A stretch of 34,664 bases of DNA. It comes from an uncultured bacterium. GTDB taxonomy: Bacteria > Patescibacteriota > Minisyncoccia > UBA6257 > 2-01-FULL-56-20. The notes under the pieces are model-generated. The model ran no database searches and was not told where the DNA came from. It was given only the letters and a program-made list of their open reading frames with translations. This document shows positions 3,001-27,543 of this stretch, piece after piece. Numbering within the stretch: the stretch's first letter is position 1; each line of letters opens with the position of its first letter. Both the position numbers and the translations under genes were made by a program. Location of the stretch: the NCBI GenBank assembly GCA_963844965.1, contig CAWJQC010000003.1, positions 1 through 34,664 of the forward strand, given 5' to 3'.

Positions 3001-4627
3001 ATTTATCACGTTACTTCCACCGCTTTCCGCACCGGCGCTTCTTCCACTTGTGAAACAGCCAATCCCACGACCGACAACCGCTGGTGCTACCTCGGAGTCG
3101 TCTCTTCCACTGGTTCCTGTGTGAGCGGCACGAATTACAACGAAACCGATACCGTTGCACTTTACTACTTCGCCGATTCCACGGGCAGCCAATCGCCGAC
3201 CTCAAGTTATCCCACGCAGGATTGGGTGGCTTACGCCGTGGCGGTGGACAAGGAGGGTGCGACATCCAGTGTCACTAACTCAACTTCCTCCAACGTGGAC
3301 GTTGTCGTCCTCACGGGCTTTAACGTTTCGCCCGCGTCCTCAACCTACGGCACGCTCCTCGTCGGCCAGAACACCAGCTCCACGAACCAAATCCACTATG
3401 TGAGCAACGCCGGCAATTCCTCAACAACCCTCGCCATATCCGGTACCGCCTTCAGGTGACGGTTTGGGACATTTCCTGGCAACGAGTTCCCAGCATTACG
3501 CGACTTCTTCCTTCACATTCGGCGGAGCGGAACAGCAGTTGAGTGATTCCTCGGCGACCGTGAGCGGTTTCAATACGATTCCGTCGCACATCAACGCGTC
3601 GCCAATCGTGCAGGCGTGGCAGACGAACCCAAATTCGCTGCCCGTTGCGCTTAATCATTACTCCGCCGTCGTTTACAACGGATATATTTATACGTTAGGT
3701 GGGGGTACCAATAATGTTTACTATGCTCCGATAAACTCCAATGGCACCATAGGCGTGTGGAAAACGAATCCGAACAATATGCCCGCTTCACTTATCTATA
3801 ACACGGCTGCCGTTGCCTATAACGGATACATATATTCAATCGGAGGCGAGGATAATGGAGTCGGCGTTAACACCTCCAGTGTTTTCTATGCTCAGATAAA
3901 CGCTTCAAGCACCGGCACGTGGTATAAAAATCCCAATTCCCTGCCTACGGCGCTGGAGTACAACTCGGCTGTCGTCTGGAATGGCTATATCTACAATCTC
4001 GGCGGCACCGCAAATACAGGCAACGGTAACGGAGGCACCACTACGGTTCTCTATGCCCAAATCAACACCTCCAGCACCGGCGCGTGGACGACAAATCCGA
4101 ATTCACTGCCGAGCGGACTGGCAGCTTTTGCTGCCGCCGCCTATAACGGCTATGTGTATGTTATCGGGGGATATGTTAATGGCAGCGGTCTCGCCTCCAC
4201 CGTCTATTATGCTCCGATAAACTCCGACCACACGCTTGGCGCCTTTCAGACGAACTCCAACTCTCTGCCGAGCGCACTTGATTTCCTCTCAGCCATCGCC
4301 TATAACGGATACCTCTATGTGATAGGAGGAGAAACCGGTTCCGGCGCTACCTCCTCGGTTTTCTACGCCGCGATAAATTCCACGGGGTCGGTCGGAGTAT
4401 GGCAAAATGCCGCCTCTCTTCCGGACTCAAACGAACAAAGCTTTGCCGTTGTCTCAAACGGCTATGCCTATCTCGTGGGCGGCAGTAACGGGACGAACAA
4501 CACCTCCAGCGTCTTCTATGTATCTCTGGACAACCGCCCGATCTACTGGGGCGCGACCGCCCCCTTGCGTTCCGCCGCCGGCAACTACCAGAGCACCGTA
4601 ACCTACACGGCGGTGTGGAGCCAATAA
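1..4627 (+). pseudogene. Kelch-like beta-propeller surface protein paralogue. It is 5'-truncated by the window edge and broken by at least 6 frameshifts. Its 3' part is rearranged, with a Kelch block inserted into the shared C-terminal domain.
   Basis: Frame 3 is open from nt 3 to 1055. ORFs then alternate frames (793-1215, 1280-1657, 1851-2393, 2390-2830, 2785-3459, 3464-4627). Each resembles consecutive segments of the paralogue at 5735-8999. Repeated 'SAVAYNGYIYTIGG...SVFYAQIN...GxW' units look like Kelch repeats. The segment 3464-4627 is intact and about 90% identical at nucleotide level to 6240-7140. Confidence 0.6.
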
Positions 4628-4630
4628 AAA

Positions 4631-4662
4631 AATTAACGACATCGCAAGTCGTTAATTTTTTT
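4631..4662 (+). terminator. Rho-independent terminator hairpin (aattaacgac / atcgcaa / gtcgttaatt) followed by a T7 run. It belongs to the TTAACGACATCGYAAGTCGTTAA palindrome family.
   Basis: Perfect 10-bp stem plus T-run directly after the TAA at 4625-4627. Confidence 0.6.
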
Positions 4663-4716
4663 ATAAGACCTATAGGTCCTATACGACTTATACGACCTAT
4701 AGGTCTTATAGGTCTT
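4663..4716. repeat. Tandem 8-9 bp units TATAGGTC / TATACGAC / TATAAGAC (array 1 of 5 around the 4HB gene).
   Basis: Direct reading: ataagacc tataggtcc tatacgac ttatacgac ctataggtc ttataggtc. Confidence 0.8.
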
Positions 4717-5479
4717 GTTTCTTTTTCTTCTCCCTCGCTTCTTTCAGAATTTTTTCTATCATCTCGTCGGTTTCTTTCTCAGCTTCTTTTTCTTTCGTCA
4801 AAATTTTCCTCAGCTTCTGTTCCCGCGGTTCGAAAATCGCGCCGTTTGCTTCATGCTCCGCTCTCACTGCTCTTATCTGCATGTCCAGAAGATAATTGGT
4901 TTGGTTGATAAGACAGATAAGGCAGTTTGCCGCCTCTTCGGGATTTTCAAGATAGGTCTTATAGGTCGTATAGGACTTATCAATCCTATCAATCCTATCA
5001 GTCCTATCAGTCCTATCAATCCTATCAGTCCTATCAGTCCTATCCGTCCTATCCGTCCTATCCGTCTTATAAACCAATTGCCGAACCGCAAGCGCCCTCG
5101 GGTTGTCCTTCTTCCAGATTTGGAAATTCCGCTGGCGCAGAAAATCGGAGTAATCTTCCAGCAGTTCTTCAAAGGAAGCCCGCGCGACGCCGAGAAGAAA
5201 AATTTCGGTTTTCGGCGAGTTCTTTCCGGCGGCTGCGCCCTCTACGATGTTTTGTTTTCCTGAACGTGCCGCCTGCATCATCTGGTCGCTTTGGCGCGTA
5301 AAATGATAAGTCGTATAGGTCTTATATGTCCTATCCGACCTATCCGTCTCATCGGTCTTATCCGACTTATCGAACCCGGACCCGCGGGGTTCAACGTACC
5401 GGCGGCAAAACTCCGCGGTCATGTCGCAAATTACGGTTGCCTGTTCGTAGGATTTCAAATTTTTGTAAGTGGGCGGCAT
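4706..5479 (-). CDS. Four-helix-bundle protein (PF05635-like, '23S rRNA intervening sequence protein' family) carrying two in-frame tandem-repeat insertions.
   Basis: The core reads 'QMMQAARSGKQNIVEGAAAGKNSPKTEIFLLGVARASFEELLEDY' and matches the 4HB motif 'QL.RS..S...NI.EG..R.S..EF..FL.IA.GS..E'. A 9-bp repeat GTCCTATCA x10 is translated in frame as TDRTDRTDR. Start is placed at Met33 (5479) because upstream codons lie inside a repeat array. Confidence 0.5.
   Translation of the reverse strand: MPPTYKNLKSYEQATVICDMTAEFCRRYVEPRGSGFDKSDKTDETDRSDRTYKTYTTYHFTRQSDQMMQAARSGKQNIVEGAAAGKNSPKTEIFLLGVARASFEELLEDYSDFLRQRNFQIWKKDNPRALAVRQLVYKTDRTDRTDRTDRTDRIDRTDRTDRIDRIDKSYTTYKTYLENPEEAANCLICLINQTNYLLDMQIRAVRAEHEANGAIFEPREQKLRKILTKEKEAEKETDEMIEKILKEAREKKKKQDL
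4953..5073. repeat. Tandem array of about 13 units of 9 bp (GTCCTATCA / GTCCTATCC / ATCCTATCA) plus TATAGGTC units, inside the 4HB ORF.
   Basis: Seen directly. Period 9, so the reading frame is preserved. Confidence 0.85.
5306..5376. repeat. Tandem 8-9 bp units (TATAGGTC / CTATCCGAC family), array 3, inside the 4HB ORF.
   Basis: Seen directly. Confidence 0.75.
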
Positions 5480-5500
5480 CGTTTCGGTTTTGGTTTTTTT

Positions 5501-5561
5501 ATGCGTCCCATGCGTCTTATAGGTCCTATAAGACCTATACGTCTTATAAGTCGTATAGTAG
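5501..5561. repeat. Tandem 8-9 bp units (ATGCGTCC / TATAGGTC / TATAAGAC), array 4.
   Basis: Seen directly. Confidence 0.75.
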
Positions 5562-5606
5562 ACCCGCCGGTACAACTTATCAACATCTCCAAAAACAACG
5601 GAGCAG

Positions 5607-5615
5607 TGTTAGAAT
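5607..5615 (+). promoter_or_regulatory. TGTTAGAAT extended -10-like element (one of 4 identical copies in the window).
   Basis: Exact 9-mer TGnTAnAAT upstream of the 5735 gene. The same 9-mer occurs at 9270, 9568 and 27544, each upstream of a + strand gene. Confidence 0.35.
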
Positions 5616-5654
5616 TAGAGAAAGCGGGCATCGCGGCCCGAGGTTTTTGGTATT

Positions 5655-5720
5655 AAGTCCTATGCGTCCTATAAGTTCTATTGGCCTTATAAGTCCTATG
5701 CGTCCTATAAGACCTATAAA
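5655..5720. repeat. Tandem 8-9 bp units (TCCTATGCG / TCCTATAAG), array 5.
   Basis: Seen directly. Confidence 0.75.
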
Positions 5721-5734
5721 AAACCGTTCGCATT

Positions 5735-8700
5735 ATGAATAAGCACTTTGCCCTTGCGCTCATAATCATTGCCTCCGCGATAGTCGTTGCCGGCGGCGTT
5801 GTCGGCGTCGTTTTGGGCGACAGCACGTCGCAGATGAACCTCGGGGTTTTGAACATAACGCCGCGGCGGCCGATACTGAATTATCCTGCGCCGAACTCAA
5901 CTATTTCGTACGCGGGCAGCACTTTTCAGATAACGGCGACGAAGCCCACGGGCGGCGGCAGTTACGTGCAGTACAAACAAGTGATTTATCAGAACGAGGC
6001 CTGCACGCAGGTCGTGCAGACAAACGACGAAACGGCGTCGCAAACCGGCTGGAGCGGCGAGAACGCTTCTGCGAGCGAGGCCTATGCCGCCGGAAACGCA
6101 ACCGGTTCTGCCGGTACCTTCACTTTACAGACGAACTTGGCGACCAATACCACTTACTGGTGGGGCGCGCAGGCCTACGACCCCGACACTGCGGGAAGCT
6201 GGGGCACGAGCACGCTCACGCGAGTGGACAACGCGTGGACTACGAACGCGAATTCCCTGCCGACCACACTTTCAATGTTCTATGCCGTTACTTACAATGG
6301 ATATATTTATGCGTTAGGAGGGTGCGCTAGCACTGTTTATTACGCTCCGATAAATTCCGGCGGCACTGTGGGTATATGGACGACGAATCCGAACAATATG
6401 CCTGCTTCACTTGGCAGTGACGTAGCCGCTGTCGCCTATAACGGATATATATATACAATCGGAGGGGGAGTTTGTGGCCCCAGTGTCAACACCACTACCA
6501 TTTTCTATGCCCAGATTAACGGCTCAAGCACTGGCCCGTGGCTCACAAACCCCAATCCGCTGCCCACAGCGCTTGAGCACAACTCAGCTGTCGTCTGGAA
6601 TGGCTATATCTACAATCTTGGTGGAAGCACATCAGTCGGTAACTGTGCCAATGGCACCACCACCGTCCTCTACGCCCAAATCAACGGCTCCAGCACCGGG
6701 GCGTGGCAGACAAATCCGAATTCGTTGCCCACCACCGTAACGTGCGCAGCCGCTGCCGTCTATAATGGCTACATATATGTGATTGGGGATGATGCCATAT
6801 ATTATTCTACTTCCAGTGTCTTCTACGCCCCGATAAACTCCGACCACACGGTTGGCGCCTTTCAGACAAACCCCAATTCCCTGCCGAGTGCGATTGGGGA
6901 CAACTTCGCCGTCGCCTATAACGGCTATATATATTTGATTGGGGGGGAGAATGCCGCTAGTGTTGCTACCTCCACCGTCCTCTACGCCGCGATAAATTCC
7001 ACAGGGTCGGTCGGTGTATGGCAAAATGCCGCCTCTCTTCCGAGCTTAAACAGATACGGCTCTGCCGTTGTCTCAAACGGCTATGCCTATCTTATGGGCG
7101 GCAATGACGGGACGAATGACACTTCCACTGTTCTCTATTCCCAAATCAACCAGCTCGGTTCCACCGCCGCCGAGGGCTGGATAAACAACTCCGCTCTCGC
7201 AAGTTCAATCTATCTGAACGATGCCCTTGCCTATAACGGCTACATTTACTCAACAGGAGGAACATCGGACGGCACGAACGGAACAACAACCGTGAATTAC
7301 GCCATGCTGAACTCCAACGGCACCCTGGGCAACTGGCAAACGACGGCAGCTCTTCCCGCGAACACCGTCCAGCACGGAGCATTCGCCTATACGAACTCAG
7401 GCGGCACGACCCTCCTCTATACAATAGGCGGCGGCACCACGGTAGGAGCTGCAGGAAACAAGGTGAACCAGGCGACGGTCAACACGAACGGCACCTTGGG
7501 AACCTGGAGCGCTGCCGTTTCGGCAAACCTTCCGGCAAACTACGAGAACAGCTTCACGGGAGCGGCGAACGGCTACGCCTATCTCGTGGGAGGGGATAAC
7601 GGCACGAATGCCACAAGCGCCGTCCTCTACGGCCTCATAAGCTCCACGGGTACTATCAAGAACTGGTCTTCAACGAACCCTCTTCCCGCTGCCGTAACGA
7701 ATCAGGGAGGCATAATCCTGAACAACGTCATTTACGACATCGGCGGCAGCACGGATATCGCGGCTGCGAACATCACGACTACCGTTAACTACGCTCCCAT
7801 CAATTCCAACGGTTCTGTCGCGAGCTGGACAGTGAGCACATCTCTGCCTGCTCCCATCATCCAGCCGGACGTTGAGACCTGGAACAACTTCATCTATGTC
7901 ATCGGCGGCTCGTCAACCGTGGCCTACGGAGGAGCGACGACAACGGTTCTCTACGCCGTTCCAGCCGGCAACCAAAGTAGCTCCGGCTTCATAGTCCAGT
8001 CCAGCGGCACCTTGTCGTCATGGCTTGCCGCCACCCCTCTTCCTTCTCCTCTTTACGAGGAGGGTTCGGCTGTAGCAGACGGCTATCTCTATACCGTGGG
8101 AGGCAAGAACTCTTCGGGAGCCACTACGACCGTTCAAAACACCGGACTTTATACTTCCTGCATAGCGTTCAATTCGGTGACGAACTACGCGCCGTCGGTT
8201 TCCGCGGTTTCCTTGAACGGCGGCAACGCGCTTACCCTGACGGCCAACGCCACGACGAGCTTCAGCATAAATTATTCCGTGACCGACCCGAACGGCTGTT
8301 CCAATATCGCGAGCGTAACCTCCACCGCCTTCCGCACGGGAGTCGCCGGTGCTTGCGCCACGGCGAATCCCGCGACCGACAACCGAAATTGCTACCTGAG
8401 TGTCGTCAACTCCACGAGTTCCTGCGCGGGCACGAACTACAACGAAACCGATACTGTCGCTCTTTATTATTTCGCCGATTCAACGGGTATCACTACCTCA
8501 AGTTACCCAACCCAGCACTGGGAGGCCTACGCCACGGTCTTGAGCAATTCGGGCTTGACCGCGAGCGCCACTTCTTCCAACGTGGACGTGAACGTCCTCT
8601 CCGCCATAAACGTGACGGAGCCACTTCCAGTGTCATTAATTATGGTGCTTTATCGCAAAACGCGAATACCGGTTTGTGAATCAGACAACGACGGTGCAGA

Positions 8701-8999
8701 ACGCCGGAAATTCTTCCACGACACTTCAGATTTATGCGTCGCAGGTTTTGACTTCCGGCACGAGCACAATACCGGCGGCCTACCAGCACTATGCGACTTC
8801 TTCCTTCACCTTTGGCGGCAACGAGCAGCAGCTTACGACAAGCACGAACCCCGCCTTCGTTCCCGGATTTGTACTCACCGTTCCCACGAGCACGGCTTCG
8901 GTCCAAAAATTGACATACTGGGGCGCTGGCACGCCGGCCGGCCAGGCGGGCGGCAGTTATCAGGGCACGACTATGTTCGCGGCAGGGTTTTCACAATAG
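5735..8999 (+). CDS. Large secreted surface protein. It has an N-terminal signal anchor, an Ig/FN-like module, about 20 Kelch-like propeller repeats and the shared roughly 240-aa C-terminal domain. It needs two -1 frame changes near 8617 and 8677.
   Basis: ORF 5735-9058 runs into out-of-frame low-complexity text after 'SAINVT'. The conserved C-terminal sequence continues in the other two frames as 'GATSSVINYGALSQNANTGL' and then in ORF 8676-8999 as 'NQTTTVQNAGNSSTTLQIY...WGAGTPAGQAGGSYQGTTMFAAGFSQ*'. These match the C-termini of the 12570 and 16027 genes. Confidence 0.65.
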
Positions 9000-9002
9000 T
9001 TA

Positions 9003-9236
9003 CAAAGTCAAAATTCAAAAGGCAAAAGTCAAAAGTTAAAGTAAAAAATCAAAAATGAAATACTTTTTACATTTGACATGCAATTTTGACCTTTGAGTTT
9101 TAACTTTTGACATTATCTGAGCTGACTTTTGATTTTTGCCTTTTGACCCCGAGCCCTGCGTACTGAAACAAGAACGCGACGACTTTTGACATTTGACCTA
9201 TACTTTTGACTTTTGAATTTTGCCTTTTGACCTTAA
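9003..9236. repeat. Inverted arrays of the 8-mer GTCAAAAG / CTTTTGAC. There are about 6 units on the + arm (9003-9060) and about 10 on the - arm (9066-9236).
   Basis: Seen directly. A large imperfect palindrome centred near 9062, with no gene inside. Confidence 0.75.
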
Positions 9237-9674: not shown

Positions 9675-10349
9675 GTGAACAAAACAACGGGCAGAATAAA
9701 AGAAATTGCGCGGAACAAAAAGGCAAAAATCGGGCTCTTAATCTGCGCCGTGATTGCGGCAATATTATCCGGCTACCTCATAGTCAAAGCTCTCTCGTTT
9801 GTTGATAATTTCACCACCACCAATTACGTGTCAAGCGTGTGGCACACGCAAGTGGCGACTTCTTCGGGCGTTGCCGAATTGCAGGCGAAAACTTGCAATA
9901 CTATTTCCACCTCAACCTGGTTTTGCTCCGCCACTTCCACCTCCATATGTTTGAACGACCTTGGCGACGGCGACTACATTATAGTTGCCCAAGCCGATAG
10001 CGGCCACCTGGCGTGGAAAAATGACGATACTGCCTGCTCTCGGCCGCAATGCGAGCAAGACGGCCCAGTGGACGGAAACAATCTGGTTGCCGACAACACG
10101 GTAAATTTCAGCGATTACGCGGCGCGGGCTGCCTGCCAAGCGATTGGCGGCCGTTTGCCGACGCGAAACGAATTGGGGTGCTTGTACAACAACTCATCAA
10201 CGTTCGGCGGTAACTTTGCTGCGGACTTCTACTGGTCTTCTGCCGAGGACGATGCCGCGGACGCCTACTACGTGTATTTCGCGAATGGCGGCGTGAGCAG
10301 CTACGGCAAGACCTACGCCTACTACGTCCGCTGCGTCCAAGGGTGGTAA
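9675..10349 (+). CDS. DGR target protein. It has an N-terminal membrane anchor, a Cys-rich region and a C-terminal DUF1566/FGE-like (C-type-lectin fold) domain that carries the variable repeat.
   Basis: GTG start. The C-terminus reads '...LPTRNELGCLYNN...FAADFYWSSAEDDAADAYYVYFANGGVSSYGKTYAYYVRCVQGW*', the classic DUF1566-type ending. Its last 128 nt align to the TR with A-only mismatches. Confidence 0.8.
   Translation: MNKTTGRIKEIARNKKAKIGLLICAVIAAILSGYLIVKALSFVDNFTTTNYVSSVWHTQVATSSGVAELQAKTCNTISTSTWFCSATSTSICLNDLGDGDYIIVAQADSGHLAWKNDDTACSRPQCEQDGPVDGNNLVADNTVNFSDYAARAACQAIGGRLPTRNELGCLYNNSSTFGGNFAADFYWSSAEDDAADAYYVYFANGGVSSYGKTYAYYVRCVQGW
10215..10342 (+). other. DGR variable repeat (VR).
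   Basis: 128 nt, colinear with the TR at 11061-11188 with no indels. There are 14 mismatches, all at positions where the TR has A (TR AAC codons read as TTC, GAC, TAC, AGC or GGC in the VR). A shared GC-rich 3' end 'cgtccgctgcgtccaagg' could be the IMH (initiation of mutagenic homing) element. Confidence 0.85.
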
Positions 10350-10392
10350 GATTTGGAATTTGGGCATTTGAGGATTTGTGGATTGGGTTGTA

Positions 10393-10460
10393 GTTGGTAG
10401 CTTGTAGCTGGTAGGTAGTAGGGAATTCCTACAAGCTAAAAAGCTACAAGCTAAAAAGCT
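10393..10460. repeat. Hairpin-forming repeat (GTAGCTTGTAGCTGGTAGG ... CTACAAGCTAAAAAGCTACAAGCTAAAAAG) on the left flank of the 4HB gene.
   Basis: 'agcttgtag' and 'ctacaagct' are reverse complements around gaattc. A similar copy sits on the right flank. Confidence 0.7.
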
Positions 10461-10462
10461 GA

Positions 10463-10825
10463 ATGAAAATAAATTCATATACAGACCTGATTGTTTGGCA
10501 AAAAGCAGTTGATTTAGTTGTGGAAGTTTATAATCTGACTGAGAAATTTTCCAAAAGCGAACTTTTTGGTCTAACTTCACAAATGAGACGGGCAGCAGTT
10601 TCTATTCCGTCTAATATTGCCGAGGGCAGGAGGAGAGGAACAAGAAAAGATTTTTGCCATTTTTTGGTTATCGCTTTTGGTTCAGGAGGAGAATTGGAAA
10701 CCCAAATAATAATTGCCAAGAAACTAAACTTTATAAAAATAGGCGAGTATTCAAAGGTCGATTTGTTATTAGACGAGGTTATGCGCATATTGAACGTCAT
10801 GATTCATAACCTGCAGGTTCATTAG
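10463..10825 (+). CDS. Four-helix-bundle protein (PF05635 / '23S rRNA IVS protein' family).
   Basis: 'DLIVWQKAVDLVVEVYNLTEKFSKSELFGLTSQMRRAAVSIPSNIAEG...ELETQIIIAKKL' is a near-consensus member. Confidence 0.8.
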   Translation: MKINSYTDLIVWQKAVDLVVEVYNLTEKFSKSELFGLTSQMRRAAVSIPSNIAEGRRRGTRKDFCHFLVIAFGSGGELETQIIIAKKLNFIKIGEYSKVDLLLDEVMRILNVMIHNLQVH

Positions 10826-10885
10826 CTGGTAGGTCGTAGCCTGTAGGAATTTACAAGCTAAAAAGCTACTAGCTACAAACTAATT
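10826..10885. repeat. Right-flank copy of the GGTAGG...CTACAAGCTAAAAAGCTAC hairpin repeat.
   Basis: ctggtaggtcgtagcctgtaggaatttacaagctaaaaagctactagctacaaac. Confidence 0.7.
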
Positions 10886-11060
10886 CGGCCGGAGTCTTTA
10901 ATCACGCAGCGGCTCAAGCCGCGCGGGTTAAAGAGAGTTTGCTGATATAAACCACGATTTCGCCGCCCCGTTAGGGAGCTGTGAATGTTGGGCTAAACTA
11001 ACAGGGCATTGTTGGCAAGCAGCTGTTTTACGGCTGCTGAGACAGTCCAGCGCGAAATAT

Positions 11061-11188
11061 TTTGCTGCGGACAACTACTGGTCTTCTGCCGAGAACGATG
11101 CCGCGAACGCCTACAACGTGAATTTCACGAATGGCGGCGTGAACAACAACAACAAGACCAACGCCAACTACGTCCGCTGCGTCCAAGG
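11061..11188 (+). other. DGR template repeat (TR).
   Basis: AAC-rich (reads as AADNYWSSAENDAANAYNVNFTNGGVNNNNKTNANYVRCVQG*). Every difference from the VR is at a TR adenine. Confidence 0.85.
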
Positions 11189-11227
11189 TTGATTTATAAA
11201 AGCGAAAATCGCCGATATTTCAAAAAA

Positions 11228-11584
11228 ATGCGCAACACCGAGCGATTGCCTCTTTATCACAAGACATACGGACTAATCAAGCATTTATACGGCGTGATCA
11301 GGAGCTTTCCCAAGGAATATAAATATTCTATGGGGAGCGAAATCATGAATCTTTCGTGGAAATGCCTTGACCTTATTATTGAAGCGAACGCCTACCCCAA
11401 TGCTCAAAAGAGCGTGAAAGTCGCCGAATTAAGCGCGGCATACGATAAATTAAAAATGCGGCTGCGGATGAGCCAGGAAATCAACCTGACATCAGCCGGC
11501 CAATTCGCTCATCTTGAAGAAAATTACATGCTGGAAATAGGGAAAATGATTGGCGGCTGGAAAAAATGGGCGGGGGCAGAATAA
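11228..11584 (+). CDS. avd: Avd (DGR accessory variability determinant).
   Basis: About 118 aa, placed between TR and RT. It matches the bAvd pattern (Y..L..L..V.R.FPK.YKY..G..I....W.CLDLII.A...K.......LS...D.L...LR......I......H.E...LEIGKMIGGWKK) and has the C-terminal GGW motif. Confidence 0.7.
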   Translation: MRNTERLPLYHKTYGLIKHLYGVIRSFPKEYKYSMGSEIMNLSWKCLDLIIEANAYPNAQKSVKVAELSAAYDKLKMRLRMSQEINLTSAGQFAHLEENYMLEIGKMIGGWKKWAGAE

Positions 11585-11620
11585 ATTTCTAATTTCTAAT
11601 TGACCTAATTGATTTAAATA
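11584..11620. repeat. Left inverted-repeat arm (aatttctaatttctaattgacctaatt...) of a MITE-like element.
   Basis: Its reverse complement recurs at 11863-11900. The same family, without cargo, is at 28797-28887. Confidence 0.65.
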
Positions 11621-11833
11621 ATGTTCAATTCCAAAATCCCAAACAAAGATAAATATGATTTGGAAGAAAGAACCGCAAAATTCGGCGAAGAAGTTATCAG
11701 ATTTTGCCAAGAATTGCCCCAAAATGAAATAACCAGACCGATAATAAATCAGCTGATAAAATGCGCAAAATTATGGGTTGAAGCCAAAGAGTTAAATCTG
11801 ATTTTCAACGCAATCAACAATAAATTGAAATGA
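11621..11833 (+). CDS. Truncated 4HB-family gene fragment (N-terminal two-thirds only).
   Basis: 'YDLEERTAKFGEEVIRFCQELPQNEITRPIINQLI' matches the 'FDLEERL..FA..II.L...LPK......I..QL.RS' N-terminus of 4HB proteins. It lacks the C-terminal helices. Confidence 0.4.
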   Translation: MFNSKIPNKDKYDLEERTAKFGEEVIRFCQELPQNEITRPIINQLIKCAKLWVEAKELNLIFNAINNKLK

Positions 11834-11862
11834 CGCTTTTGGTTATTGGGATTTAGGATTTA

Positions 11863-11900
11863 TTTAGGTCAATTAGAGCAATTAGAATAATTAGAAATTA
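11863..11900. repeat. Right inverted-repeat arm (tttaggtcaattagagcaattagaataattagaaatta).
   Basis: Its reverse complement matches the left arm at 11584-11620. Confidence 0.65.
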
Positions 11901-11903
11901 CCC

Positions 11904-13040
11904 ATGGCCATCTTCACCTATGAAAACCTGTATCGCGCGTATCTTGACTGCCGGCGCAATAAAAGAAAAACGATTAACGCGCTGAAATTTGAGATTGATT
12001 TAGAAAAGAATTTGTCTTTACTGCTTGAAGAATTAACGAGCCGTCGATACCAGCCAGGCCGCTCGATTTGTTCGTGGTCAAATATCCCCAGCCGCGGGAA
12101 ATATTCGCGGCTGATTTCCGCGACAGGATAGTGCACCATCTGCTGGTCGGCCAAATTCTGGCCGAAAGCGAAAAAAGCTTTTTTTACAACAGTTTCGCTT
12201 GCCGCAAAGGAAAAGGTACGCACAAGGCGGTCGGACTTTTGAGAAGATACCTGAAAAGCGCTTCCAGAAGCGGAAAAGAGAAAATATTTTACCTGCAATT
12301 GGATATCGGAAGTTTTTTCGTGTCAATCCGGCACCGCGTTTTATTTTCCATTTTCAGCGAATTTGTCGGCAAATTGAACCGGACCGAAGAATGGAAACAA
12401 GAAATTTTATGGCTGGCTGAAAAAATCATTTTTTACGAACCAGCCAAAAATTGCGAAATAAGAGGCGATAAGAGCTTGCTCGCGCTGATACCGCCGCACA
12501 AGTCGCTTTTTAACGCGCCGCCAGAACGGACTGCCGATTGGCAATTACACCTCGCAATTTTTCGCCAATATGTATCTGAACCGATTGGATTATTTCACCA
12601 AGCAGACGCTTAAGGAAAAATTTTATATCAGATATGTTGACGACATTGTGATTTTAGGAAAAAGCGCCGGCGCGCTTAAAGGTCTGATTCCCGAAATTAA
12701 CAGGTTTTTGAAAAAAGAATTGGAGATTGAACTGAATCTTGACAAGATCAAGTTCAAAAACGTTTCGGCGGGCATAGATTTTCTGGGCTATTTTGTGAAG
12801 CCGGATTACACGCTTGTCCGCCGCCGGGTGGTTAAGAATTGCAAGGAAAAAATCCGCCCTGCCCCCGAAGTTTCGAAAAAATTGGTCTCGCAAGCCAATT
12901 CTTATCTGGGGCATTTTATCCACGCCGCGAGCTACGGATTGAGAAAAATGATTTCAGAGAGGTTAATCAAAGCGGACAATTCTATACATTTTAGCAATGG
13001 CTATAAATCGATATTCGCAATAATTGGCGGGCAAAGAAAA
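11904..13040 (+). CDS. DGR-type reverse transcriptase. It is frameshifted (frame 0, then +2 near 12065, then back to 0 near 12520) and read through in frame into the downstream surface-protein gene.
   Basis: It carries these DGR-RT motifs:
- 'YQPGRSI / FVVKYPQPREIFAADFRDRIVHHLL'
- 'SFACRKGKGTHKAV'
- 'IFYLQLDIGSFF'
- 'GLPIGNYTSQFFANMYLNRLDYF' (found in frame 0)
- 'YIRYVDDIVILG' (the YxDD box)
- C-terminal 'SQANSYLGHFIHAASYGLRKMI'. Confidence 0.8.
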
Positions 13041-14975
13041 ATAATCAAAACGGCGGTTGCCGCGGCAGTTCTGCTCGCGGGCTTTTCGTTTGCTCATTCC
13101 GCCTCCGCCGCTTATTTCAAGACCGGCTCTTTGGTTTCCGCTAACCTCTTGGACGGCTTGACCAACGTCGGCGCGATTACCCAATTTAACGCCACAACTT
13201 CCATCGCGGCGGGCACTTCGGTAAGCGTCCAATTTTCCCGCAATAAACTTACCTGGTACAGCGCCTCCGGCACGGCGTTCGCCACAAGTTCGCTTTCGGA
13301 CGGCGCGAACAGCATTGACTTGTCGGCGTTGGGGTGGACCGGCCCGATTTTTTATTACAAGCTGCAATTCGCGACGAATGATTCAAGCATCACTCCGACT
13401 GTATCGGGCGTGGCCGTGAATTACAATTACAGCTCCGGACCGACGTACGAGTATTTCGGGCAAGGGTCTTTGGTTTCCGCCAATGTGCTTGACGGTCATA
13501 CGGACGTCGGCGCAATTACCGGATTTTCCGCTTCAACTACCGTGCCGGCCAGCACGACAATAACAGTCCAGTTTTCGCGCGACAAATTGGTTTGGTACAA
13601 CCATTCCGGCGTGGCGTACGCCGAAGACAGCTTGTCCAACGGCTCCAATGTCGTTAATTTGTCCGCTTTGAATTGGACCGGTCCGCTGATTTATTATAAA
13701 TTGCATTTTACCACAAGCGATGTCGGCCAGACGGCGGCTATTTCATCGGCCGAGATTGATTATTCAGCCGGTTCCGGCTCGGTATATTTCAAGCAAGGAA
13801 CATTGGTTTCAACAAATCTTTTGGCTGGCGGAGGGACGCTTAGCGGAAACGAATTGTTCGGCTATAACATTTCTTCTTTGCCTTCTGGAACAACGGTTCA
13901 GGTCCAATTCAGCACCAGTAGCGCCAATTGGTTCAGTTCCACTGGCACCGCTTGGGCGTGGGACACCTTGTCCAGCGGCAGCCACCTTACCGCTTCAACC
14001 GCGATTAACTTGTCCGCGCTTGGCTGGACCGGCGCCAGTTTTTATTACAAATTAGAATTCACAACGACTGATGCCGGCACAACTCCGACAGTCGCTCAAA
14101 TATCGCTCTTTACGCCGGGAGCGCTGCCCATCGTTACGGTTCTGATGACGGTCGTCTCAAGCAGCGCTCCCATCGTATCCGCCGTATCGGTGAACGGCGG
14201 CAATTCCATCACGCTCACGCCCGCGACAACGACCCCGATCAGCGTCAATTTCACGGTTACGGATTATTCCGGCTGTTCAAACGTTTTCACGAGCGGCAAC
14301 GTTACGACCACGCTTTACCGCATGGGCGTCGGGAGTTCGTGCGTGGCGGACAACCGCAACTGCTACAGGACTTCCTCGCAAACCAACAATTGCTCGGGCA
14401 GCGGTGCCAACGCCACGGCAACTTTGAATCTTTACTATTTCGCCGATTCCACCGGCAGCCAATCGCCGACCTCAAGTTATCCATCCGACCACTGGCAGGC
14501 CTATGTGCAGGCGCTGGACGGGACGGCGAACGCCACGGGCACCGCCACGTCAACCGTGAACGACGTTAATGTCTTGACGGCCATCACCGTTACAACTTCT
14601 TCCATCAACTACGGCACGATGTCGCCGAATGCGACGACCTCGGCCGCGAGCGACCAGCTCGCGACCGTGCAGAACGTCGGCAATTCGTCCACGACTTTGA
14701 AAATTTCCGGCACGGCGCTCGTAATGTCCTCGCCTTACGACGCGTTCGCAACGTCCAGCCAGCATTACGCCACATCCACTTTCCAGTGGAACGCCAGCGG
14801 CCCGGAGCAGCAACTTCAGCAAACACAAACAACGGTTCCGGGATTTTCTCTGACTACCCCCACCTCCACGAGTGCCGTGAGCGGTAACACTTATCGGGGC
14901 GTGCAAATTCCCGGCAGCGCGCAAAGCGGCGTGCACGTGGGGATGATAACGTTCAGCTCAAATTGGAGCCAATAA
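13041..14975 (+). CDS. Secreted surface protein with three tandem repeats of about 100 aa and the shared C-terminal domain. The start is uncertain because there is no canonical in-frame start codon.
   Basis: A signal-peptide-like 'KIIKTAVAAAVLLAGFSFAHSASA' is followed by three units of 'YFKxGSLVSxNLLDG...VQFS..KL.WY..SG.A.....LS.GSN...LSAL.WTGP..YYKL.FTT.D'. The tail is 'VSAVSVNGGN...DNRNCY...LYYFADSTGSQSPTSSYP...TVQNVGNSSTTL...QHYATSTF...WSQ*'. Confidence 0.55.
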   Translation: MIKTAVAAAVLLAGFSFAHSASAAYFKTGSLVSANLLDGLTNVGAITQFNATTSIAAGTSVSVQFSRNKLTWYSASGTAFATSSLSDGANSIDLSALGWTGPIFYYKLQFATNDSSITPTVSGVAVNYNYSSGPTYEYFGQGSLVSANVLDGHTDVGAITGFSASTTVPASTTITVQFSRDKLVWYNHSGVAYAEDSLSNGSNVVNLSALNWTGPLIYYKLHFTTSDVGQTAAISSAEIDYSAGSGSVYFKQGTLVSTNLLAGGGTLSGNELFGYNISSLPSGTTVQVQFSTSSANWFSSTGTAWAWDTLSSGSHLTASTAINLSALGWTGASFYYKLEFTTTDAGTTPTVAQISLFTPGALPIVTVLMTVVSSSAPIVSAVSVNGGNSITLTPATTTPISVNFTVTDYSGCSNVFTSGNVTTTLYRMGVGSSCVADNRNCYRTSSQTNNCSGSGANATATLNLYYFADSTGSQSPTSSYPSDHWQAYVQALDGTANATGTATSTVNDVNVLTAITVTTSSINYGTMSPNATTSAASDQLATVQNVGNSSTTLKISGTALVMSSPYDAFATSSQHYATSTFQWNASGPEQQLQQTQTTVPGFSLTTPTSTSAVSGNTYRGVQIPGSAQSGVHVGMITFSSNWSQ

Positions 14976-14983
14976 TCTTAAAA

Positions 14984-15036
14984 TTAACGACATCGTAAGT
15001 CATTAATTAATAATTAACGATGTCGTAAGTCGTTAA
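14984..15036. repeat. Two REP-like palindromes (TTAACGACATCGTAAGTCATTAA and TTAACGATGTCGTAAGTCGTTAA) between convergent genes.
   Basis: Seen directly. They are the same family as the hairpin at 4631-4657 and the palindrome at 15752-15774. Confidence 0.75.
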
Positions 15037-15722
15037 TCGAGCGAAACGTTTTTGACCTCTTCTATTTCAATATCCTTAAGCCACTGTTTTATATTTTTTT
15101 CGTATTCCGCGGGGCCGCCGAAAAATTTCATAAGAAATTCTCTATTAGTAACCGACGGAAAATTTTTCTTGCCGAGATAATCAAGGTGGCTTGACCAGCG
15201 GTAATTATCCAAGAATTTCATCGCTTCTCTATGGTTCTTGATCTCGCGTTCGCGCCATTCCGGCGCCGCGAGGTCCAGCGGGTTCACGTGTATGTAATAG
15301 GGGATATGGTTGAAATGCGATTCGTTCTTTATCACCATGGATTTGTACCTGCCTTCAAATAACGTCCCCTTCCTTTCGTATTTCTGATTGAAATATTTTG
15401 CGTATCCCACGTTGATTTTTTTCATAAACGCCGTGATAGCTCCATCCGTGCGCGGGGAAAGAAGGAGATGATAGTGGTTGGGCATTAGACAAAACGCGTA
15501 TATATCAACCAAGAGTTTTCTTGGTTCTCTTGGCTTTGATTTGCCGCCAATATAACGACTTGCGACATCGTTAGATTGGTTGAATCTATAAAAAGCGTTA
15601 TTTACCCTGTTTTGGTCGTTAAATTCAAAAAGATCGTGGATAAACCTCAAATAATCCTGTTTATCAAGGAAGATTTTGCGTTTATCCACGCCCCTGTTCA
15701 GTGTGTGGTAGACATCAGCCAT
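15033..15722 (-). CDS. REP-associated tyrosine transposase (RAYT), a Y1 HUH transposase of the IS200 type.
   Basis: HuH motif 'CLMPNHYHLLL', then 'GAITAFMKKINVGYAKYFNQKYERKGTLFEGRYKS', then 'YYIHVNPL'. REP-like palindromes flank it on both sides. Confidence 0.7.
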   Translation of the reverse strand: MADVYHTLNRGVDKRKIFLDKQDYLRFIHDLFEFNDQNRVNNAFYRFNQSNDVASRYIGGKSKPREPRKLLVDIYAFCLMPNHYHLLLSPRTDGAITAFMKKINVGYAKYFNQKYERKGTLFEGRYKSMVIKNESHFNHIPYYIHVNPLDLAAPEWREREIKNHREAMKFLDNYRWSSHLDYLGKKNFPSVTNREFLMKFFGGPAEYEKNIKQWLKDIEIEEVKNVSLD

Positions 15723-15751
15723 GCTTTTGCCTATAGGTTATAGCACGCCCA

Positions 15752-15774
15752 CTAACGATGTCGCAAGTCGTTAA
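15752..15774. repeat. REP-like palindrome CTAACGATGTCGCAAGTCGTTAA upstream of the RAYT gene.
   Basis: Seen directly. Confidence 0.7.
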
Positions 15775-17139: not shown

Positions 17140-17242
17140 AAAAAGCACGGAATTTGTTCATTAACTGATTAGCGAATTGCGGATTAAAGGTCAATTTTAA
17201 TTTATTAATACGTTAATCCGTTAGTTTATCCGTTAACCGATA

Positions 17243-18146: not shown

Positions 18147-18167
18147 TTTGTTAGTTTTTTGTTTTTT

Positions 18168-18237
18168 ATTAACGAGTTAACGAGTTAACGGGTTTTTTGT
18201 TATTTTTATAACTCGTTAACCCTTTAACTCGTTAACT
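18168..18237. repeat. GTTAAC-based palindromic repeats (TTAACGAGTTAACGAGTTAACGGG ... AACTCGTTAACCCTTTAACTCGTTAAC).
   Basis: Inverted copies that could form a terminator-like hairpin. The family recurs at 20720-20888, 21541-21612, 23915-23975 and 27419-27500. Confidence 0.7.
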
Positions 18238-18355
18238 GACTAATAAAATAATTTTTTAAGTAAAGTTAACTCCCTAACTCGTATTTTTAATTAGCGTATA
18301 AAGGAGCACGGATTGGTGGTAAAATTAGGAAAAATATCTCAAAGAACGTAACGGA

Positions 18356-20719: not shown

Positions 20720-20888
20720 GTTAACGAGTTAACTTCTTTTCTTAACCGGTTGGTCGGTTATTGCGGTTAACGAGTTCGCGAGTTAACGAGTTAAAATCCA
20801 AACCCGTTAACTCGTTAACACGTTAACTCGCCAACTACATAACTGTTTGTTCGATAAATTAAACTCGTTAACACGTTAACTCGTTAAT
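20720..20888. repeat. Cluster of GTTAACGAGTTAAC-type palindromic repeats, about 10 units in both orientations.
   Basis: Seen directly. Fills the whole intergenic region upstream of sodA. Confidence 0.75.
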
Positions 20889-20914
20889 AAGTAATTATCA
20901 AGTTAATAAAAATC

Positions 20915-21538
20915 ATGAAATTCGAATTACCAAAGTTGCCGTACGCATATGACGCGCTTGAGCCATTTATAGATGCGCGAACAATGGAGCTGCACCATGC
21001 CAAACATCATCAGACCTATGTTACCAAGCTAAACGAAGCCATGGCGAAGCATCCCGAACTGGAAACGCCGAGTTTGGAAAAATTGCTTCAGTCGCTGGAT
21101 AGCGTTCCCGCAGATATTCGCACTGCCGTGCGGAATCACGGTGGCGGCCACTATAACCACTCGTTTTTCTGGAGGGTGATGGCGCCGCATTCCGAAAAAA
21201 GCGATAAGCCGCAAAACGGCGGACTTGCCGAAAAAATCGAAAAAACATTCGGCAGCTTCGCAAAATTCAAAGAAACTTTCAGTTCGGCAGCCGCCGGCGT
21301 TTTCGGCAGCGGCTGGGCGTGGCTCGTTTCCGATCCATCGGGTAAATTATCTATCACGACAACGCTGAATCAAGATAGCCCGATCGTGAGCGGCCTCAAG
21401 CCATTGCTTTGTCTTGACGTCTGGGAACACGCCTATTACCTGAAATATCAAAACCGCAGGTCCGAGTACATTGAAGCGTGGTGGAGTGTCGTGAACTGGG
21501 AACAGGTTAATAAGAACCTTAACGAATTAATCGATTAA
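20915..21538 (+). CDS. sodA: Fe/Mn superoxide dismutase.
   Basis: '[29 protein letters not shown]', 'GSGWAWL' and '[15 protein letters not shown]...VVNW' are hallmark SOD motifs. Confidence 0.9.
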
Positions 21539-21540
21539 AG

Positions 21541-21612
21541 AGTTAACGAGTTCACGAGTTAACGGGTTAAAATATCAAACAACTCGTTAACACGTTAATA
21601 AACAACCCGTTA
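21541..21612. repeat. GTTAACGAG palindromic repeats downstream of sodA.
   Basis: agttaacgagttcacgagttaacgggtt ... aactcgttaacacgttaat ... cccgttaattcattaacg. Confidence 0.7.
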
Positions 21613-21683
21613 ATTCATTAACGTGGCCACTTGTTTGGATTGGACAGATTATGGCTTGTTCACAGCAAGAGCGGCGCCCTTAG

Positions 21684-23914: not shown

Positions 23915-23975
23915 ATTAACGGATTAACGCATTAACGGATAATAATTCGTTAATTCGCAATTCGTTAATAAGAAA
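23915..23975. repeat. ATTAACGGATTAACGCATTAACGG / TTCGTTAATTCGCAATTCGTTAAT inverted repeats.
   Basis: Seen directly between convergent genes. Confidence 0.65.
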
Positions 23976-26765: not shown

Positions 26766-27410
26766 TTGAAGTCAAGGAACGCTTGGCTTACAATGAATTG
26801 GATGCGGAAGCGAGTTTTCGTCGCCTTGAATCTTGAAAAAAGTGCGCTCGACGCGATCGAGCGCCTTGTTGACGAGCTCCGGCCGAAATTCGGCGGCGTT
26901 CGGTTTGTCTCGCGCGAGAACTGGCACCTCACTGTTTCGTTCCTGGGTTATCAGGAGGAGGCCGATATTCCGTGCATTGTTGAGGCGATGAAGCAGGCCG
27001 CGAAGGATTTTGGCGGGCAGGAGATTGCGTTCAGGAAATTGCTTTACGGACCTCCGGGCCGCACGCCGCGTATGATTTGGCTTCTGGCGGACAGCGGTAT
27101 CTCGCGCAAACTTTCCGAGATGAAGACGGCGCTGGAAGATAATTTAGAGGAAGCGGGCATTCACTTTGGGCGGGAAGCCCGGCAGTTTACGGCCCACTTA
27201 ACCCTTGCCCGCCTAAATTTTCAAAATGAAAACTTTGGCGGGCGAGCCAGATTCGGCGATTTCGGCAGTGCCACGCCGCTACCGCCAATAGCGGGCGATG
27301 TAGACATCCGCTCCGTTGCCGACACGCTGGATCTGATGGAATCGGAATTAAAGCGTGGAGGGGCGGAATACATTGTTTTGCAGAGAATACCATTTACTGG
27401 GCGGTTGTAG
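26766..27410 (+). CDS. thpR: RNA 2',3'-cyclic phosphodiesterase (2H phosphoesterase, LigT/ThpR family).
   Basis: Two H-x-T-x motifs, 'WHLTVSFLG' and 'AHLTLARL'. The start is probably an internal Met near 26793. Confidence 0.7.
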   Translation: MKSRNAWLTMNWMRKRVFVALNLEKSALDAIERLVDELRPKFGGVRFVSRENWHLTVSFLGYQEEADIPCIVEAMKQAAKDFGGQEIAFRKLLYGPPGRTPRMIWLLADSGISRKLSEMKTALEDNLEEAGIHFGREARQFTAHLTLARLNFQNENFGGRARFGDFGSATPLPPIAGDVDIRSVADTLDLMESELKRGGAEYIVLQRIPFTGRL

Positions 27411-27418
27411 GTTGGTTA

Positions 27419-27500
27419 GCGGGTTAACGCGTTTAAAGAGTTAACGAGTTTAGAAATTCACAACCCGTTAACGCATTAACTCGTTAACTATATAATCGGT
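27419..27500. repeat. GGTTAACGCG ... GTTAACGAG ... CCCGTTAACGCATTAACTCGTTAAC palindromic repeats.
   Basis: Seen directly. Confidence 0.7.
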
Positions 27501-27543
27501 TAATAATTAACAAGGTGCGGGGGACTTCATTAAATCTACAAAA

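Follow-up and report, generated by a model that had tools for sequence, protein, structure and literature searches.

Why does a transposase gene carry copies of one DNA hairpin ahead of its start codon, at its stop codon and inside its own reading frame? The question is raised by a Y1 HUH endonuclease gene at positions 15033-15722 (minus strand) of contig CAWJQC010000003.1 (GenBank assembly GCA_963844965.1), from an uncultured bacterium of the Patescibacteriota (Minisyncoccia; UBA6257; 2-01-FULL-56-20). The window is the entire contig (34,664 nt, 34.6 kb). The original prediction, made from the sequence letters, was that the gene encodes a REP-associated Y1 transposase (RAYT) bracketed by its cognate repetitive extragenic palindromes (REPs), that the same palindrome serves as a terminator elsewhere, and that the system disperses its hairpins to intergenic sites. 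Our analysis supports the RAYT and cognate REP reading, as a non-canonical system. Taken as a whole, the locus is probably best explained as a REP/RAYT unit ("REPtron") of a clade of class 2 Y1 HUH endonucleases. Features that are new for such a system are an intragenic REP that is fixed, in frame and co-evolving, and a 5' REP whose loop appears to act as a -35 box.

The Transposase and Its Hairpins

The encoded protein (229 aa) matches the Pfam profile Y1_Tnp (PF01797) at aa 72-145 with an E-value of 8.6e-11 and 42.5 bits, well above the cut-off of 23, as had been predicted. Because of a linker insertion, the match is limited to profile positions 41-119. The predicted HYH motif and C-terminal tyrosine are also present. 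The HUH motif is H83-Y84-H85 and the catalytic tyrosine should be Y143 in YIHVNP; both are invariant in an alignment of 30 homologs, together with R125-Y126-K127 and the remainder of Y143-I-H-x-N147-P148. Conservation in this alignment is strong throughout, except between the FEFND motif and PRKLLV, where one stretch varies in length. A database of clusters at 90% identity contains 4851 homologs, and the best 120 of these have 62-77% identity and lengths of 221-265 aa. Those of the best 120 that carry names are almost always Patescibacteria (Wolfebacteria, Azambacteria, Harrisonbacteria, Paceibacterota, Minisyncoccia). As far as sampled, the clade appears to be essentially restricted to Patescibacteria of the Parcubacteria/Paceibacteria type.

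PDB sequence searches yielded weak matches only, to ISDra2 TnpA around the HUH motif, so kinship to RAYTs is visible only with a predicted structure. The AlphaFold model (pLDDT 84, pTM 0.84) has a beta-alpha HUH core and a helical C-terminal part, with Y143 in predicted helix 134-146, and it is nearer to RAYT than to IS608 TnpA. H83-Y84-H85 aligns with H59-M-H61 of Escherichia coli RayT and Y143 aligns with its catalytic Y115; structure-based identity to E. coli RayT is only 13%. Quentin et al. 2018 (PMC6006769) assign Y---NP to class 2 (TnpA_REP) and Y---Q to IS200 transposases, and the tyrosine motif here, Y143-I-H-V-N147-P148, is the Y---NP of class 2. The protein is a distant relative, not an equivalog, of proteobacterial RAYTs, and its predicted activity is that of the domesticated, hairpin-cutting RAYT type.

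Palindromes were located with the pattern TTAACGAYRTCGYAAGTCRTTAA, allowing up to three mismatches. Five matches occur in the window (0.00 expected from shuffled sequence), and a 19-nt core is exact at all five. The basic hairpin has an 8-bp stem and a 7-nt loop (ATCGCAA or a close variant). Four of the matches are the palindromes that had been predicted. The 5' hairpin (15752-15774, plus strand) has one mismatch to the pattern, ends 29 nt before the ATG and is inverted relative to the intragenic copy. The proximal 3' hairpin (15014-15036, plus strand) overlaps the stop codon of the gene (15033-15035), and the distal 3' hairpin (14984-15006, plus strand), with one stem mismatch, lies 9 nt past the stop of the convergent open reading frame (ORF) 12570-14975. 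These three bracket the gene; the fourth is a dispersed copy at 4624-4664 (plus strand, core 4633-4655).

The fifth copy, at 15552-15574 (minus strand, two mismatches), had been missed, although it is the most informative of the five. It lies in frame within the transposase gene, where it encodes S-N-D-V-A-S-R-Y (about aa 50-57). Its extended stem (approximately 15547-15579) folds at -7.2 and -8.5 kcal/mol on the two strands. In the protein model it falls between helix 21-33 and strand 72-79, where the linker is disordered; aa 46-48 and 51-61, the peptide from this hairpin, have pLDDT values below 50.

The Intragenic Hairpin Across the Family

The first two homologs fetched were from the Paceibacterota genome CP129473 (locus L001, 65% identical) and from metagenome contigs (77% identical). 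Both have a hairpin 5' of the gene, another at the corresponding place within it, and one or two more directly after the stop codon. The 5' and 3' stem arms are AACGAC and GTCGTT in the window, AAGGAC and GTCCTT in L001, and ATGGAC and GTCCAT in locus L004, and the stem differences among the three are compensatory.

A further 80 loci were taken from metagenomes, in addition to the genome-scan loci holding the gene. In all fetched loci, ORFs were called only crudely. The family tests compared 60-nt windows of the gene with its flanks; the 62 non-redundant loci used have flanks of at least 150 nt on each side. Gene nt 120-210 contains an exact match of at least 12 nt to the flanks of its own locus in 52-53 of the 62 loci, and of at least 17 nt in 40 of them; all other gene windows reach 12 nt in 0-3 loci and 17 nt in none. 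The longest word shared by linker and flanks has a median length of 19 nt within a locus versus 9 nt against the flanks of other loci, and words of at least 17 nt are found in 41/62 own-locus comparisons versus 4.9% of between-locus comparisons. A best-hairpin statistic for the linker was only moderately above codon-shuffled controls (27/62 loci exceed the 95th percentile). That statistic is also biased by selection, and we relied instead on the shared-word tests.

The internal hairpin starts at gene nt 143-160, in a linker of 75-111 nt; the 5' copy ends 15-50 nt ahead of the ATG, and in most loci the 3' copy begins 0-25 nt past the stop codon. Relative to the internal copy, the flanking copies are inverted/direct, direct/inverted or inverted/inverted about equally often. 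Hairpin types vary widely between lineages, and the internal copy follows its flanks in each. Types seen include ACGAC-ATCGCAA-GTCGT, AAGGAC-ATCGTAA-GTCCTT, ACGAAGT-TCA-ACTTCGT, AAGGCTGT-CGG-ACAGCCTT, GTGACAT-CCG-ATGTCAC, GTGAGGT-TGA-ACCTCAC and GGCGTC-ATCGCAA-GACGCC. Two contigs hold two diverged paralogs about 1 kb apart (L176 5001-7392; L157 93-2062), and each paralog has its own hairpin type at the 5' flank, the linker and the 3' flank. As judged from the loci compared, the internal, 5' and 3' copies change together between lineages. One hairpin core recurs across many Patescibacteria lineages, some of which have switched type; this is also new.

The encoded peptide changes with the hairpin. 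Among the top homologs, 56 have D-[IV]-A-S, and in 55 of these 56 the flanking residue pairs fit pairing between codon -1 and codon +1. The pairs are N/R (AAC/CGT), K/P (AAG/CCT), N/H (AAT/CAT), I/R (ATC/CGA) and M/P (ATG/CCA). These homologs are not phylogenetically independent, but they include at least five pair types. The fit of the residue pairs to base pairing indicates that the amino-acid sequence yields to the DNA structure.

The main rival to a functional internal copy is a neutral insertion homogenized by RAYT activity. The internal hairpin would be a REP that inserted in frame long ago, in a loop that tolerates it, and would have no function; its similarity to the flanks would be kept by RAYT re-insertion or replacement, or by gene conversion. 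The predicted disorder of the linker agrees with this, and so does its standing as the sole poorly conserved, length-variable part of the protein, which fits insertion and deletion turnover. Non-disrupting in-frame REPs have been described in tnpA_REP and other genes with no function assigned (PMC6006769), and the exact flank match is shorter than 12 nt in 9-10 of the 62 loci. However, the copy occupies one fixed protein position in about 85% of loci, at only 59-77% identity to the window protein, and untargeted insertion would not hit the same codon repeatedly. It is also difficult to reconcile a neutral insertion with amino acids that change so that pairing persists, or with two paralogs in one genome that keep distinct internal types matching their own flanks. 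We therefore consider the functionless reading possible but doubtful. Because of the fixed position, the amino acids that yield to pairing and the paralog-specific types, the data favor, but do not prove, a function for the internal copy.

A Probable Promoter and Possible Self-Regulation

On the gene strand, the loop of the 5' hairpin reads TTGCGA (15761-15766), a -35-like hexamer. A -10-like hexamer, TATAAC (15737-15742, minus strand), preceded by TGc, lies 18 nt downstream of it and 14 nt upstream of the ATG, making this a candidate promoter. It is read by analogy with homologous loci. Wherever the 5' copy is inverted, its loop gives TTGCGA on the gene strand. TTGCG[AG] lies no more than 90 nt from the ATG in 32 unique loci; 27 of these have TAnnnT at a spacer of 16-18 (21 at exactly 17), and in most of them this hexamer ends 5-21 nt before the ATG. 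Only 5 of 137 dispersed hairpin copies have the same -10-like spacing. Because of this difference, the 5' hairpin loop appears to supply the -35 box of the gene's promoter in most relatives examined. Loci with a direct 5' copy tend to have an extended -10 (TGnTATAAT) instead (for example L001, L201, and L194). An antisense promoter arising from the internal copy was also considered and was rejected, as a -10-like hexamer at spacer 16-18 was found in 0/34 loci.

A mechanism can be proposed from this arrangement. The protein would recognize the hairpin on single-stranded DNA and would nick and rejoin it via Y143, a reaction that could place hairpin copies at further intergenic sites, as has been suggested for E. 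coli TnpA_REP. The 5' copy would form part of the promoter, its TTGCGA loop serving as the -35 element at 16-18 nt from the -10, with a very short leader. Because its own recognition site lies in the promoter, in the coding region and at the stop codon, the protein probably limits its own expression. Such a requirement for autoregulation would hold all three copies matched to the specificity of the protein, and it is probably the most likely reason for their match. Dispersed copies such as that at 4633 may be secondarily useful as terminator-like hairpins.

More tentatively, the promoter, in-frame and stop-codon hairpins may form a self-sensing circuit, in which the transposase reads its own site as DNA or mRNA and throttles itself. 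We hold this to be a possibility rather than an expectation. If true, it would force the protein and the REP population to co-evolve, it would explain why one hairpin core persists across many Patescibacteria lineages, and it would give a REP/RAYT system a built-in regulatory mechanism. In a stronger variant, the protein itself would excise or invert, as an on/off switch, the stretch bounded by the 5' and internal REPs, inverted copies about 200 bp apart, with the promoter and the first 50 codons between them. Inversion has no support, as the N-terminal part between these copies was on the opposite strand in 0/93 loci. E. coli TnpA_REP has been described as auto-inhibited and strongly down-regulated, and no circuit controlling it is known (PMC3479197). 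The clade described here offers a sequence-level handle on how REP/RAYT systems are restrained and on what keeps a RAYT and its REPs matched. The hairpins in the probable promoter and in the reading frame are concrete, testable candidate sites for autoregulation, and the many switches of REP type are a natural data set for mapping specificity determinants.

One genome contains a broken copy of the gene. At L107 6039-6345 (Harrisonbacteria MHJJ01000002), a truncated Y1 gene retains codons 3-73, with the internal hairpin among them, as well as the 5' hairpin and the promoter region, and is followed by a 19-bp inverted repeat resembling a tRNA 3' end; the full Y1 gene of this metagenome-assembled genome (MAG) is on another contig (L047). 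We considered whether the fragment could be a mobile unit running from the 5' REP to the internal REP and rejected this, as homology continues for about 55 nt past the internal hairpin.

Dispersal in Related Genomes

REPs are distributed between genes as single units and in larger assemblies, including bacterial interspersed mosaic elements (BIMEs) and paired REPs that form hairpins (REPINs) (PMC2817692; PMC3116915; PMC6006769). A scan with the pattern TANNGACATCGCAAGTCNNTA of one genome per species (596 Gb) found at least 119 blocks, nearly all from Patescibacteria among the matches listed. The non-Patescibacteria matches listed, about a dozen, are at chance level (the estimate is about 70 by chance in 596 Gb when 17 bases are specified). 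The blocks fetched from MAG UR.bin241 (129.5 kb) hold at least 51 copies, and the sequence used is exactly that of the window. In this genome, perfect and imperfect hairpin types pair as inverted doublets 3-5 nt apart, and there are tandem hairpin arrays with a 26-bp period; REPIN-like doublets occur in other relatives as well. Fetched blocks of Liptonbacteria JACOXY01 (at least 11) and Harrisonbacteria MHJJ01 contain about 9-11 copies, and the 20.7 kb fetched from CP129473 contains only 3, all of them gene-associated. Of 138 dispersed copies, 103 (75%) are outside the crude ORFs, while ORFs cover 84% of the sequence. In its arrangement, this dispersal pattern is the organization described for REPs, BIMEs and REPINs. 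REP/REPIN-like populations are new for the ultra-small genomes of Patescibacteria, and the literature searched contained no description of RAYTs or REPs in this group.

The palindrome is therefore not confined to the transposase locus, given the copy at 4633 in the window and the dozens of copies in related Patescibacteria genomes. The predicted dispersal to intergenic sites holds for the relatives; in this organism it amounts to one extra copy in 34.6 kb.

The suggestion that the palindromes act as terminators stands in part. At the 4633 copy, A7 and T7 runs lengthen the stem to 17 bp, and the predicted folding energy as DNA is -14.7 kcal/mol (z = -7.2). The copy lies between convergent genes, 6 nt past the stop of the plus-strand gene 3464-4627 and facing ORF 4706-5575 (minus strand), and it could plausibly serve as a bidirectional terminator. 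A simple terminator scan of the window did not list it, because the T run is part of the stem, and Rfam at gathering thresholds found no known RNA family in the whole window. A general terminator role does not hold. Extragenic copies in the relatives are found in 48 tandem, 13 convergent and 11 divergent contexts, so the hairpins are not simply terminators.

In a second alternative, the hairpins are host regulatory or terminator elements for another factor, the Y1 protein is a domesticated DNA-binding protein or nuclease and no longer mobilizes them, and their dispersal is ancient or otherwise driven. A GAC-ATCGCAA-GTC core that recurs little changed in many named candidate phyla of the Patescibacteria (Wolfebacteria, Liptonbacteria, Harrisonbacteria and others), the unusually high conservation of the protein, and the terminator-like character of some copies would all be expected in that case. 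Yet the catalytic HUH motif and tyrosine are invariant, and each paralog has its own hairpin type. Copy number differs greatly, as the counts for UR.bin241 and CP129473 indicate, and the tandem arrays and REPIN-like doublets point to recent amplification. A purely host-serving role is improbable in the light of these observations, and a REP/RAYT system accounts better for them.

The other 35 of the 138 dispersed copies are inside long ORFs of unrelated genes (L063 541-563 and 1509-1531; L091 4674-4696; L099 3854-3876; others). These may be in-frame REP insertions like those published, or artifacts of the crude ORF calls. Tandem repeats of REP arms are found beside the gene in L137 and L147. 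The heptamer TTAACGA, which is identical to the REP lower stem, occurs 28 times in the window (6 expected).

Comparison With Known Systems

Several observations weigh against a REP/RAYT assignment or limit how far it reaches. The NCBIfam RAYT equivalog model REP_Tyr_transpos (NF047646) gives 42.9 bits, under its cut-off of 80, and W94 and Q95, which contact GTAG in E. coli RayT, correspond to F122 and E123. The hairpins have no 5' GT[AG]G foot; position counts over 51 copies give feet of AATTAAC.. or CCAATCTA.. instead. The promoter scan of the window did not call TTGCGA-N18-TATAAC, and TATAAC went unflagged because the scan requires T at position 6. The case for autoregulation is drawn solely from the positions of the sites. 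In this organism, a single non-local copy (4633) is visible on the 34.6-kb contig. For the relatives, copy numbers from the genome scan are lower bounds, and binning errors in MAGs could mix contigs of different organisms.

Subclasses 2.6 and 3 are likewise without a GTAG foot (PMC6006769), and the REP/RAYT assignment can be set beside the systems already described. The protein resembles E. coli TnpA_REP/RayT (YafM; PMC2817692, PMC3479197, PDB 4er8) in its HUH motif and Y---NP tyrosine. The E. coli REPtron is alike in organization, as a cognate hairpin flanks the gene and is dispersed extragenically as singlets, inverted doublets and arrays. The protein differs from E. coli RayT in length (229 versus 165 aa), in the linker of about 38 aa before strand beta2 and in a longer helical C-terminus. 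The locus differs in having a REP copy inside the gene, a 5' REP loop read as a -35 box, and a host from the Patescibacteria, not a proteobacterium.

In-frame REPs inside tnpA_REP have been reported from subclass 2.4 (Bertels group 4), which is found in Cyanobacteria, Bacteroidetes and various other phyla, and there they lie in a peripheral variable region (PMC6006769). In that subclass the in-gene REP is between the HUH motif and the tyrosine and has no assigned role (PMC6006769). Here, in contrast, the copy is N-terminal to the HUH motif, has one fixed position in about 85% of loci, covaries with its flanks and is without GTAG. By motif, the protein is closest to subclass 2.1 (Bertels group 1, which includes TIRYTs), whose second signature is NH[YF]H, FQ and Y[IV]HLNP with a median length of 238 aa (PMC6006769, Table 1). 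The corresponding features here are NHYH, FE, YIH[LV]NP and 229 aa, and the likeness is one of motifs only. Subclass 2.1 is reported to be without nearby REP-like sequences and to have a C-terminal helix-turn-helix domain (DnaA_C-like), whereas the present gene has cognate hairpins and a Pfam search of the protein found no helix-turn-helix domain.

REPINs (Bertels and Rainey 2011, PMC3116915) are similar to the inverted doublets of the relatives, whose members, 3-5 nt apart, could form one long hairpin. These doublets use two REP subtypes, like the Y and Z units of E. coli. No doublet of this kind is present in the window, where the two 3' copies are direct repeats and the inverted pair, formed by the 5' and internal copies, is separated by 177 nt.

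Low gene copy number with no near-identical duplicates is a criterion for RAYTs (Bertels 2017, 10.1101/119735). IS200/IS605 insertion sequences (IS; subclass 1.1) have Y---Q, core-only proteins of about 150 aa, often a tnpB gene, and multiple near-identical copies. The window contains one copy of the gene. Each multi-block genome has one full copy in its fetched blocks, with one additional fragment in MHJJ01, and homolog clusters at 90% identity are mostly on 1-5 contigs each. No tnpB partner was found among the six flanking ORFs scanned (~9.7-19.3 kb), which are diversity-generating retroelement (DGR) and surface-protein genes. Relative to the TnpA of IS608 and ISDra2, the protein here has Y---NP, not Y---Q, and is longer. 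It is very improbable that hairpin, gene and hairpin together are an autonomous IS200/IS605-type IS, with the flanking hairpins as its ends and the 4633 copy as a solo end or a miniature inverted-repeat transposable element: the Y1_Tnp domain, the hairpins near both gene ends (on the same strand in the window, like the ends of IS608) and the truncated second gene copy in L107 would fit such an element, but the tyrosine motif, the RAYT-like structure, the lack of a tnpB gene among the six ORFs scanned, the low copy number in the window and the fetched blocks, the free variation of flanking-copy orientation between loci and the dispersal of bare hairpins and doublets, not gene copies, all speak against it.

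Neighboring Genes and Repeats

A DGR occupies positions 9675-12900 of the window. Its variable region (10215-10345) is at the end of a gene encoding an Lcl_C domain (9675-10349), and its template region is at 11061-11191; variable and template regions have 15 differences, 14 of which are at template adenines. A bAvd domain is encoded in ORF 11009-11584. Two overlapping ORFs (12068-12613 and 12570 onward) each encode part of the reverse transcriptase, which indicates a frameshift or an assembly error. The second of these ORFs continues without a change of frame into a large secreted repeat protein, whose end is at 14975.

Several large Kelch-repeat proteins with highly similar internal modules are encoded at 324-9058 (for example 3464-4627 and 5735-9058), and long duplications are shared between their genes (3665-3964 with 6284-6583; 2377-2653 with 7681-7957). 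Just past the 1107-aa Kelch gene, two arrays of AAAGTCAAAA-like units, inverted relative to each other, surround a 130-nt spacer (9004-9234). Dense repeats with a 9-bp period (TATAGGTCN and TATCAGTCC with their complements) form inverted arrays at 4663-5718, and they overlap ORF 4706-5575 (minus strand), which has only a weak match to a 23S rRNA-intervening-sequence protein.

A second family of intergenic repeats consists of octamer arrays (GTTAACGA/GTTAACNN) with an 8-bp period. They are located at 18164-18252, 20720-20898, 21519-21622, 23915-23968 and 27407-27504, and also at 17193-17223. Typically, three direct units are followed by three inverted units, and the arrays can form long intergenic hairpins.

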